From assembly GCF_013315695.1 (NCBI RefSeq), contig NZ_CP054361.1: a DNA stretch of 2,113 nucleotides; one strand, given 5' to 3'. The DNA is from Escherichia coli. GTDB taxonomy: Bacteria > Pseudomonadota > Gammaproteobacteria > Enterobacterales > Enterobacteriaceae. The translations under genes were made by a program, and so were the position numbers. This document shows, piece after piece, positions 91 through 1,960 of the stretch. A model generated the notes under the pieces. It had not been told where the DNA came from and searched no databases. It saw only the letters and a list, made by a program, of their open reading frames with translations. The stretch's first letter is position 1. Every line of letters begins with the position of its first letter.

Positions 91-140
91 TTTGGATTTT
101 TAAGAACGCATTCTTAGTTCTGGAAAAGAGCCAGCGGCAG

Positions 141-150
141 GCTGAGGTGA
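141..150 (-). repeat. Inverted dispersed copy of the repeat core (reads TCACCTCAGC on the minus strand)
   Basis: Plus-strand GCTGAGGTGA at 141-150 is the reverse complement of TCACCTCAGC, which contains the CCTCAGC core of the tandem unit and is identical to the plus-strand 10-mer at 890-899. Confidence 0.5.
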
Positions 151-165
151 TAGGTACGAGATTGC

Positions 166-294
166 ATGCAATCTCTAGTGCTCTGTCTATCCTGCATTAT
201 CCTCAGCATTATCCTCAGCATTATCCTCAGCATTATCCTCAGCCTTGCCAACTCGACACCAATGCAGGATAGACAATCCGATGTCAAATGTTAA
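166..294 (+). CDS. Hypothetical 42-aa hydrophobic peptide reading through the tandem repeat (MQSLVLCLSCIILSIILSIILSIILSLANSTPMQDRQSDVKC); speculative
   Basis: ATG at 166 follows an in-frame TAG at 151-153; stop TAA at 292-294. The 12-bp repeat is in frame and encodes IILS x4, giving a roughly 25-residue hydrophobic segment followed by a charged tail. Only a weak SD (GAG at 158-160). All three frames through the repeat are open, so this may be an artefact. Confidence 0.15.
   Translation: MQSLVLCLSCIILSIILSIILSIILSLANSTPMQDRQSDVKC
195..242. repeat. Tandem direct repeat, 4 perfect copies of 12-bp unit CATTATCCTCAG
   Basis: Identical units at 195-206, 207-218, 219-230 and 231-242. A degenerate partial copy (TATCCTG) lies at 188-194 and the array decays into CCTTGCC at 243. 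Confidence 0.95.
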
Positions 295-480
295 CACTCT
301 GCGAGTGGTACATTTTCCCCGGATTATCGTCCTGAGCCTGCCGCTGGCTCTCTTTCTACCGCCTCGCTTTGCTCGTTGCTCAACGCCTCACAGACACGGA
401 TTAAAATCCGCATCCGTTCACCGTTTTTTAAAGTCCGTTAAAAGCATGATGCCATCTCCGAGAGTTAATCTCGTCAAATG

Positions 481-517
481 CTAAATCGTGGGGGTCCCCT
501 TTGGGGTTCCGATTTAG
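481..517. repeat. 8-bp perfect inverted repeat (CTAAATCG / CGATTTAG) enclosing a G/C-tract core TGGGGGTCCCCTTTGGGGTTC
   Basis: 481-488 is the reverse complement of 510-517. The enclosed CCCC(496-499)-TTT-GGGG(503-506) can form a nested mini-hairpin. Confidence 0.85.
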
Positions 518-553
518 TGATTGACGACACCACCGATTAAAAAACTTATGCGG

Positions 554-586
554 GGTGGATGGTTTCACGAAGTGAGGCCATCCACC
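554..586. repeat. 9-bp perfect inverted repeat (GGTGGATGG / CCATCCACC) with 15-nt loop
   Basis: 554-562 is the reverse complement of 578-586. Confidence 0.85.
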
Positions 587-994: not shown

Positions 995-1960
995 ATGTCA
1001 GAAGATAAATTCCTTTCGGACTACAGCCCCCGTGATGCAGTTTGGGATACCCAGCGCACGCTTACCGATTCTGTCGGGGGTATCTACCAGACTGCTGCTG
1101 AATTCGAGCGCTATGCACTCCGTATGGCCTCCTGTAGCGGTTTGTTACGTTTTGGTTGGTCTACCATCATGGAAACCGGAGAAACGCGCCTACGGCTTCG
1201 TAGTGCGCAATTTTGCCGTGTCCGTCATTGCCCTGTCTGCCAGTGGAGAAGAACCCTCATGTGGCAAGCCCGTTTTTATCAGGCTCTACCGAAAATCGTT
1301 GTGGATTACCCGTCTTCCCGATGGTTGTTTCTGACGTTAACTGTCAGGAACTGCGAGATAGGTGAACTTGGAACAGTCCTTACAGCAATGAATGCGGCGT
1401 TTAAGCGAATGGAAAAGCGAAAGGAGCTATCACCTGTTCAGGGGTGGATCAGGGCTACGGAGGTGACGCGAGGTAAGGATGGCAGCGCACATCCGCATTT
1501 TCACTGTCTGCTGATGGTGCAACCTTCTTGGTTTAAAGGGAAGAACTACGTTAAGCACGAACGTTGGGTAGAACTCTGGCGCGATTGCTTGCGGGTGAAC
1601 TATGAGCCGAATATCGATATTCGGGCAGTAAAAACTAAGACAGGTGAGGTTGTGGCCAACGTTGCCGAGCAACTGCAAAGCGCGGTTGCTGAAACGCTGA
1701 AATACTCCGTTAAACCGGAAGATATGGCAAACGATCCTGAGTGGTTTCTTGAGCTGACGCGGCAGCTTCACAAGCGCCGTTTTATCTCGACCGGTGGGGC
1801 GCTAAAAAACGTCCTCCAGTTGGATCGAGAAACCAATGAGGATCTTGTCATTGCCGACGATGTAGGGGATGGCACTGATGACGGGAAGCGGACGGCGTTT
1901 GTCTGGGATTCAGGTAAACGGCGTTACAAACGCGCCCCTGAGAAGGATAAATCGGATTAA
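995..1960 (+). CDS. rep: Rolling-circle replication initiator protein, Rep_1 (pC194/pUB110) HUH endonuclease family, 321 aa
   Basis: ATG at 995 is the first start after an in-frame TGA at 944-946, with GGAG at 983-986 eight nt upstream. Translation shows CRVRHCPVC (aa 74-82, nt 1214-1240), FLTLT (aa 112-116, nt 1328-1342), HUH motif HPHFH (aa 166-170, nt 1490-1504), WVELWRD (aa 191-197) and ETLKYSVK with Glu233/Tyr237 (Tyr codon 1703-1705). Motif order and spacing match my recollection of pC194 RepA and pUB110 RepU (FLTLT, HPHFH, CPVC and KYSxK motifs). No search was run. Confidence 0.93.
   Translation: MSEDKFLSDYSPRDAVWDTQRTLTDSVGGIYQTAAEFERYALRMASCSGLLRFGWSTIMETGETRLRLRSAQFCRVRHCPVCQWRRTLMWQARFYQALPKIVVDYPSSRWLFLTLTVRNCEIGELGTVLTAMNAAFKRMEKRKELSPVQGWIRATEVTRGKDGSAHPHFHCLLMVQPSWFKGKNYVKHERWVELWRDCLRVNYEPNIDIRAVKTKTGEVVANVAEQLQSAVAETLKYSVKPEDMANDPEWFLELTRQLHKRRFISTGGALKNVLQLDRETNEDLVIADDVGDGTDDGKRTAFVWDSGKRRYKRAPEKDKSD

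Follow-up and report, generated by a model that had tools for sequence, protein, structure and literature searches.

A complete 2,113-bp Col(BS512) rolling-circle plasmid with a second gene under purifying selection and a putative pair of inverted IncX4-type oriT copies

The stretch of Escherichia coli DNA analysed here, 2,113 nt in its full length and called the window in the following, carries a gene for a rolling-circle initiator. This raises the question whether the window is an entire plasmid or a piece of a larger molecule, and which functions the DNA outside this gene may have. The gene, rep, starts with an ATG, spans positions 995–1960 on the + strand and encodes a 321 aa HUH initiator of the Rep_1 (pC194/pUB110) type. 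By script we located the motifs CRVRHCPVC (aa 74–82, nt 1214–1240), FLTLT (aa 112–116, nt 1328–1342), HPHFH (aa 166–170, nt 1490–1504) and ETLKYSVK (aa 233–240, nt 1691–1714), the last one comprising E233 and Y237. This open reading frame, the canonical order of the four motifs and the position of the Glu four residues before the Tyr had all been part of the original prediction, and were confirmed. The profile search against Pfam Rep_1 (PF01446) that it had proposed gave a very strong match (297.2 bits at a cut-off of 33.2, E=1.3e-88, profile positions 2–252 of 253), and a score this far above the cut-off argues against a chance occurrence of the motif set. All further profile matches of Rep were below threshold and limited to IS91-type and viral HUH domains, which fits shared HUH ancestry and nothing more. 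Comparison of Rep to solved structures gave no meaningful match.

For comparison to well-known members of the family, reference proteins and nick regions were taken from pC194 (NC_002013.1) and pUB110 (NC_001384.1). Their initiators RepA and RepU are Rep_1 proteins like the window Rep, and both plasmids show nick-region homology upstream of rep on the same strand, but the amino acid identity to the window Rep is only 27–35%. Rep shares with RepU a C-terminal extension that is missing from RepA. In a three-way protein alignment C.xR.CP.C.WR, FLTLT, H.H.L and E..KY are conserved. The N-terminal Cys cluster, CRVRHCPVCQWR in the window, is conserved together with FLTLT and fits the pattern C-x-x-R-x-C-P-x-C-x-W-R, the HUH motif HPHFH aligns with NPHFH in pC194 and NQHMH in pUB110, and ETLKY aligns with EMAKY and ETAKY, respectively. 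A tblastn search with Rep against PLSDB returned 2,314 records, dominated by Staphylococcus (926) and Bacillus (250) with 25–37% identity. Against a 92%-identical relative the dN/dS of rep is 0.10. Rep belongs to the Rep_1 (pC194/pUB110) family of initiators, and as judged from the motifs Y237 together with E233 would be the putative catalytic residues for nicking of the + strand.

Is the window then a whole plasmid? It is an exact rotation of NZ_CP070424.1 (p4B2663 from Klebsiella quasipneumoniae) and of MW363524.1 (pC3W), with 100% identity over the full length. Both records are circular, have 2,113 bp and are typed as Col(BS512), a PlasmidFinder/MOB-suite type named after Shigella boydii BS512, and both are labelled "non-mobilizable". 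There is no sequence difference to these two plasmids, and sister records vary only in the number of 12-bp units (1 to 7) in a tandem array. A megablast search of the window against PLSDB found 701 records, 211 of them with at least 80% query cover. The best 30 of the 701 all show 100% identity, and nearly all have a length of exactly 2,113 bp. The match to each of them is split in two, a hallmark of circular permutation; at least 30 PLSDB records of 2,113 bp match the window at 100%. The junction of the window end to its start is contiguous in six other records. The plasmid is present in 240 of 5,426 complete E. coli genomes (about 4%, at a cover of at least 80%), and the exact Rep protein was found on at least 1,000 contigs.

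One could also regard the window as a chromosome segment, an IS91-like rolling-circle transposon or a phage instead of an autonomous plasmid. Such a view could point to a sub-threshold match to Zn_Tnp_IS91 (18 bits), to a score of 14 bits against NF033538 (cut-off 125) and to six matching places on E. coli chromosomes, which are possibly short matches. The IS91 scores, however, fall far short of their cut-offs, while the Rep_1 score exceeds its cut-off about ninefold. After rotation, the window coincides exactly with many independent circular records of 2,113 bp, and in complete E. coli genomes 577 of the 583 matching places are on plasmids. An embedding in a larger chromosome, the outcome that the original prediction had named as speaking against a plasmid, is therefore not what was found. 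A non-plasmid nature of the window is already effectively refuted and its probability negligible. The window is one complete copy of the catalogued Col(BS512) cryptic circular plasmid, which is very common in E. coli and Shigella, and we are nearly certain that it represents the whole 2,113-bp Col(BS512)/pKYM-like plasmid replicating by the rolling-circle mechanism. This bears out the proposal of an entire minimal rolling-circle replicon. The view that it belongs to a known family and is not novel also agrees with the Rep_1 match and the Col(BS512) typing: this plasmid type is already known and no new system. The finding itself matters little, since it re-identifies a catalogued cryptic plasmid. 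Some modest interest lies in a second gene under purifying selection, in a pair of oriT-like elements and in a hypervariable array between the two copies.

Among Gram-negative hosts, it was Shigella sonnei from which a rolling-circle plasmid, pKYM (RepK), was first described. A single-stranded intermediate of pKYM and a loss of replication in a Tyr-to-Phe mutant have reportedly been observed. Like the window, pKYM has a size of about 2.1 kb and an enterobacterial host. It encodes a Rep with homology to the pUB110 family and has, upstream of rep, an origin that is homologous to the pUB110 plus origin (in part PMC4439123). Its rolling-circle replication starts from a 173-bp origin, in which a core bound by RepK is followed downstream by an enhancer bound by HU, and depends on HU and UvrD (PMC4439123). 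We found a Rep identical to that of the window on 2,089-bp plasmids of S. sonnei, which makes a link to pKYM plausible. Most likely the window plasmid corresponds to the pKYM group, a kinship that is inferred from these features and not from a sequence alignment to pKYM.

The original prediction had counted one gene in 2,113 bp. This had to be revised, as a second gene, which encodes a conserved protein of 88 aa, crosses the ends of the window. The 5′ part of this ORF2 (WP_001024536.1) covers positions 1964–2113 on the + strand and begins 3 nt behind the stop codon of rep; its 3′ part with the stop codon covers positions 1–117. The circle was linearised inside ORF2, and the gene is invisible to a reader of the linear window. 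RefSeq annotates ORF2 as a CDS; automated annotation often drops one of the two genes, because the deposited records are cut at arbitrary points of the circle.

No family match to ORF2 was obtained from Pfam, NCBIfam, PHROGs or PADLOC; the gene has 30% GC versus 51% for rep, and its Shine-Dalgarno sequence, as read from the sequence, is weak. These features would be in line with a non-coding, AT-rich spacer that is open by chance. Comparison to a 2,207-bp metagenomic relative, whose ORF2 product is 84% identical on the amino acid level, clearly points to the opposite: dN/dS is 0.095 and 32 of the 45 nucleotide differences are at codon position 3, while the shifted frames have dN/dS values of 3.0 and 0.9 and contain 8–13 stops. 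Moreover, other tiny plasmids, whose Rep is a different one, carry homologues of 37–51% identity that are kept open, and the AlphaFold model of ORF2 is confident (pLDDT 92.6). We consider a spacer very improbable; ORF2 is a real gene under purifying selection. A HMMER scan of 1.8 billion representative proteins detected only 16 relatives, all of them small and unannotated, and solved structures gave generic fold matches only. The diverged relatives (37–51% identity) are found on other tiny contigs of 1.3–2.4 kb, where they adjoin a replication-like gene of the HTH_36 type and not Rep_1, in one case directly downstream of it. The ORF2 family would be confined to the smallest plasmids, which differ in their replication systems. 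From the position directly after rep, a function in maintenance or transfer of the plasmid may be suspected, and with low confidence we guess that ORF2 encodes a horizontally acquired accessory protein for one of these functions.

In order to get an idea on the position of the double-strand origin (dso), we compared seven plasmids, among them ColpVC, Col(MP18) and an Edwardsiella plasmid, in an alignment of the 540 nt that precede rep. The Reps of these seven are 66–91% identical to that of the window. A 37-nt block at positions 710–746 of the + strand, CTCGCGCG(T/C)GATCCTTGTATTTATACTTAAGGGATAA, stands out in the otherwise diverged upstream regions. It is invariant except for T or C at position 718 across plasmids with Reps that are 66–92% identical, and is also intact in the 2,207-bp relative. 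In pC194 and pUB110 the nick region (...TTCTTATCTTGATA...) is located 168–202 nt upstream of rep on the rep strand, and the nick of the pC194 family is CTTG/ATA (here and below, a slash within a nick site marks the cleaved position). Local alignment puts the block 710–746 on the CTTATCTTGATA nick regions of both plasmids: CTTGTATTTATACTTAAGGGATAA in the window, from position 723, aligns with CTTATCTTGATA-ATAAGGG-TAA of pC194 and with CTTATCTTGATACATATAGAAATAA of pUB110. By homology, the nick is predicted between positions 731 and 732 (TTT/ATA). The heptamer in the dso block reads TTTATAC, versus TTGATA(A/C) in the references. A search for CTTGATA in the window revealed no copy at the dso, and a single one at positions 84–90 on the minus strand, inside ORF2, which is the chance frequency. 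The predicted nick position thus rests on an alignment with substitutions, and this exact heptamer is the only one of the sequence-level defining features tested for Rep_1/Col(BS512) that is missing. Folding of the block did not reveal a significant hairpin compared to shuffled sequences (z = −0.97), and we therefore make no claim of a nick in a loop. Rep would nick the + strand in this block, between 731 and 732, and leading-strand synthesis would then displace the + strand.

Between the dso and rep a promoter-like sequence (TTGACA-17-CAGAAT) is present at positions 802–830 of the + strand and conserved in close relatives, making it a candidate for the rep promoter, and transcription of rep may start from around this site. 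The number of hits in the promoter scan was no higher than in shuffled sequences, and both the terminator and the promoter scans of the window gave counts at chance level and served as pointers only. A perfect 11-bp inverted repeat, GTTGGGGAGTG and CACTCCCCAAC, is located in the rep leader (850–877, + strand) and conserved in two related loci. By analogy, it would lie within the span expected for the enhancer of the pKYM origin, which might correspond to about 700–880 in the window. The Shine-Dalgarno sequence of rep (GGAG, 982–985) is surrounded by a hairpin at positions 969–992 of the + strand that is kept in eight plasmids. Of 13 pairs that are predicted for the aligned region, 6 show compensatory changes, three of these being in the core stem. 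The ribosome-binding site of rep would thus sit inside a conserved hairpin, a plausible candidate for a translational control element. An Rfam search (window at E≤1, seven related loci at gathering score) resulted in two sub-threshold chance matches only and no antisense or copy-control RNA.

After displacement, the + strand would be converted to duplex DNA from a structured single-strand origin (sso). Most probably the candidate sso is a module of two hairpins (471–527 and 554–586) followed by a T-rich run, which together span positions 471–606 of the + strand. As single-stranded DNA, the region 471–586 folds with a z of −5.5; the minus strand folds equally well, and folding does not tell the active strand. 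Nine plasmids share this conserved module, in which five pairs show compensation. One of these nine, a 3,764-bp plasmid of the MobC/MbeD type, has no Rep_1 gene, which fits a priming signal that is recognised by the host better than a Rep-specific site. The preceding non-coding stretch (355–470, + strand) shares about 97% identity with the 2,207-bp relative; the same value applies to 355–590 as a whole, while the synonymous divergence of the two genes is 0.45 and 0.90. This indicates strong constraint or recent exchange. The stretch 355–470 is constrained and may be part of the sso.

The dso block, the two-hairpin module and the Shine-Dalgarno hairpin are shared with ColpVC and Col(MP18) plasmids of Enterobacteriaceae, a group to which pBuzz may belong. 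The Reps of these plasmids are 66–69% identical to the window Rep. In contrast to the window, they lack a homologue of ORF2, and their replicon type is a different one. One ColpVC plasmid of 1,989 bp also carries two inverted copies of GTCTATCCTGCAT, while the oriT copies of the window are of the IncX4 type.

The latter assignment concerns the region 124–354, which is the part of the non-coding DNA with the most conspicuous structure. The original prediction had considered the non-coding elements as candidates for dso, sso and copy-control sites, but for this region a pair of inverted IncX4-type oriT copies is the best reading of the sequence. The left oriT-like element (124–198, + strand) is of the IncX4-variant/Col(MG828) type, with the box AAAGAGCCAGCGGCAGGC in its distal part, a perfect 9+9 hairpin at 158–175 and a nic core TGTCTATCCTG/CATT at 184–198. 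The right element (260–354, minus strand) is colinear from end to end with a 94-bp inverted repeat of IncX4 plasmids: the nic-proximal part (260–296) is identical in 37 of 37 bp and the distal 21 bp in 90%, whereas the middle is unrelated. The segment 260–296 matches with 100% identity two inverted places in hundreds of IncX4 plasmids of roughly 33 kb. In pA2 (NZ_LC477294.1, IncX4, mcr-1.1) the 94-bp repeat is found at 1317–1410 and 27929–27836, one copy directly following the rep-proximal genes, the other immediately upstream of taxA. In conjugative IncX plasmids, long inverted repeats are known to contain two oriTs, of which one is close to taxC and the other close to the replication gene (PMC3402527). 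The left element of the window constitutes the inverted second copy and resembles the repeat of a variant IncX4 plasmid as well as that of a 1,459-bp Col(MG828) plasmid, which MOB-suite calls "mobilizable" though its single annotated gene encodes a hypothetical protein.

When seven oriT-like elements were aligned, the distal box AAGAGCC.GCGGCAGGC and the terminal TGTCTATCCTGCATT were common to all. The heptamer TATCCTG occurs exactly twice in the window, once per strand, at 188–194 (+) and 265–271 (−), and at least two copies were found in only 4 of 200 shuffled sequences. The consensus for nic sites of the MOBP family is YATCCTG/Y. The nic core TATCCTG/C at 188–195 (+) and 264–271 (−) fits this consensus. 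Of the inverted repeat 5′ of nic, the right copy has an intact proximal arm and a replaced distal arm, and the left copy has kept the inner 9+9 hairpin with degraded outer arms. The 2,207-bp relative and the 1,989-bp ColpVC plasmid have this inverted pair as well, and unrelated tiny plasmids contain the oriT-like element as a single copy.

Long imperfect palindromes are typical of single-strand origins in rolling-circle plasmids, and as single-stranded DNA the region 118–360 folds into one long hairpin (z = −8.5). The long imperfect palindrome at 124–354 could therefore also be an sso with an ssoA-like hairpin, its likeness to IncX4 being incidental or reflecting a shared priming signal. Each arm, however, is colinear with the 94-bp IncX4 repeat, which is placed where IncX plasmids carry their oriTs, and the same element stands alone in unrelated tiny plasmids. 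Several differences distinguish the two copies of the 2,207-bp relative, which indicates that pairing between the arms is not what is conserved. In addition, a separate module at 471–586 is conserved, covaries and is present in a plasmid without Rep_1. Considering the single elements elsewhere and the copies that were not kept complementary, a long sso hairpin is the weaker explanation for 124–354 and in our view unlikely.

With a pair of IncX4-type oriT copies as the preferred reading, the window shares two inverted oriT copies with the IncX plasmids (R6K-like, with the MOBP relaxase TaxC). The two copies of pA2 are about 6.7 kb apart around the circle, whereas those of the window are only 62 bp apart and face each other. 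Unlike IncX plasmids, the window plasmid has neither taxA nor taxC, and MOB-suite labels it non-mobilizable. Judging from the oriT-like sequences, a co-resident conjugative IncX4 plasmid would probably mobilise it in trans. A more comprehensive view would be that the plasmid is a hitchhiker of conjugation by means of two convergent mimics of IncX4 oriTs and carries in ORF2 a member of a family confined to tiny plasmids. Taken together in all its parts, we rate this view as tentative, its chances being somewhat short of even. One of the mimics would correspond to the mainstream IncX4 type and the other to a variant IncX4 type, and IncX4 plasmids carrying mcr-1 would act as helpers. If the oriT copies work, the spread of this plasmid is tied to the IncX4 plasmids that disseminate mcr-1, and this would be another case of oriT mimicry by minimal plasmids. 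It is also of relevance for typing tools, which label a plasmid found in about 4% of complete E. coli genomes as non-mobilizable despite its two IncX4-type oriT copies. A literature search retrieved no paper linking Col(BS512) to an IncX4 oriT, which is no proof that none exists; selection on ORF2, the oriT pair and the 12-bp array were likewise not found described for this plasmid type, and this search does not establish that they are unpublished.

The array just mentioned lies between the two nic cores, at positions 194–243, and consists of 4.2 copies of the 12-bp unit GCATTATCCTCA. It starts at the left nic core. Open reading frames overlapping the repeat array (114–297, both strands) were dismissed as products of the repeats. 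The number of units is 1, 2, 3, 4, 5 or 7 in otherwise near-identical plasmids of 2076–2149 bp: records of 2,076 bp have one unit, those of 2,089 bp two, of 2,101 bp three, of 2,113 bp four, of 2,125 bp five and of 2,149 bp seven. The array is missing from the 2,207-bp relative. A function as iterons was considered for the array and rejected, since plasmids that are otherwise identical differ in copy number between 1 and 7 and the 2,207-bp relative has no array. The variation in length is most simply explained by slippage; a link to relaxase activity would be speculation. The unit resembles the nic core with an insertion of two bases (TATCCTCAGCAT versus TATCCTGCAT), and by sequence the units of the array look like duplicated nic cores.

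IncX4 mcr-1 plasmids carry a 94-bp long inverted repeat at the oriT position, located in the IncX4 plasmid pA2 (NZ_LC477294.1) at 1317–1410 and 27836–27929; a 37-bp stretch of the window (260–296) was 100% identical to each of its two copies. A second copy at window position 124–198 is inverted and resembles the repeat of a variant IncX4. The motif TATCCTG|C is found within both putative oriT copies of the window (124–198 and 260–354). The typing label of the window plasmid is "non-mobilizable". Two inverted GTCTATCCTGCAT cores, as in the window, also occur in a ColpVC plasmid (NZ_CP032422.1, 1,989 bp, positions 676–688 and 910–922), which belongs to another family of small rolling-circle plasmids, and thus the layout with two putative oriT copies recurs across Rep lineages.

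The window also contains an array of the 12-bp unit GCATTATCCTCA (194–243), which resembles the adjacent nic core plus a 2-nt insertion. The copy number of this unit varied from 1 to 7 across otherwise near-identical plasmids of 2,076–2,149 bp.

The non-coding region 355–470 shares about 97% identity with a 2,207-bp metagenomic relative, while dS values for the genes of this relative were 0.45–0.9. Judged from these values, this region is either under strong constraint or recently exchanged. A module of two hairpins (window 471–586) was found with 84% identity in NZ_CP063514.1 (3312–3433), a 3,764-bp MobC/MbeD/VRR-NUC plasmid. Since this plasmid has no Rep_1 gene, the sequence match suggests that the module is a portable single-strand priming signal.

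The second gene, ORF2 (88 aa), spans the window junction (1964–2113 and 1–117). It showed a dN/dS of 0.095 and a confident AlphaFold model; searches of profile libraries and solved structures gave no family match and no informative fold match. Diverged ORF2 homologues are encoded on other plasmids of 1.3–2.4 kb, adjoining a HTH_36-type Rep-like gene. ORF2 fragments (three proteins) are also filed under the names Bifidobacterium breve, Staphylococcus aureus and Mycobacterium tuberculosis, and most likely these assemblies are contaminated by this E. coli plasmid. In NZ_CP083708.1, a larger Col(BS512) variant of 2,634 bp, the ORF2 region is disrupted or duplicated with several partial ORF2 matches, and this record appears to be either an artefact of assembly or a derivative formed by rearrangement.

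Of 583 matching sites in complete E. coli genomes, six were chromosomal; these may represent short oriT-like matches or integrated copies.
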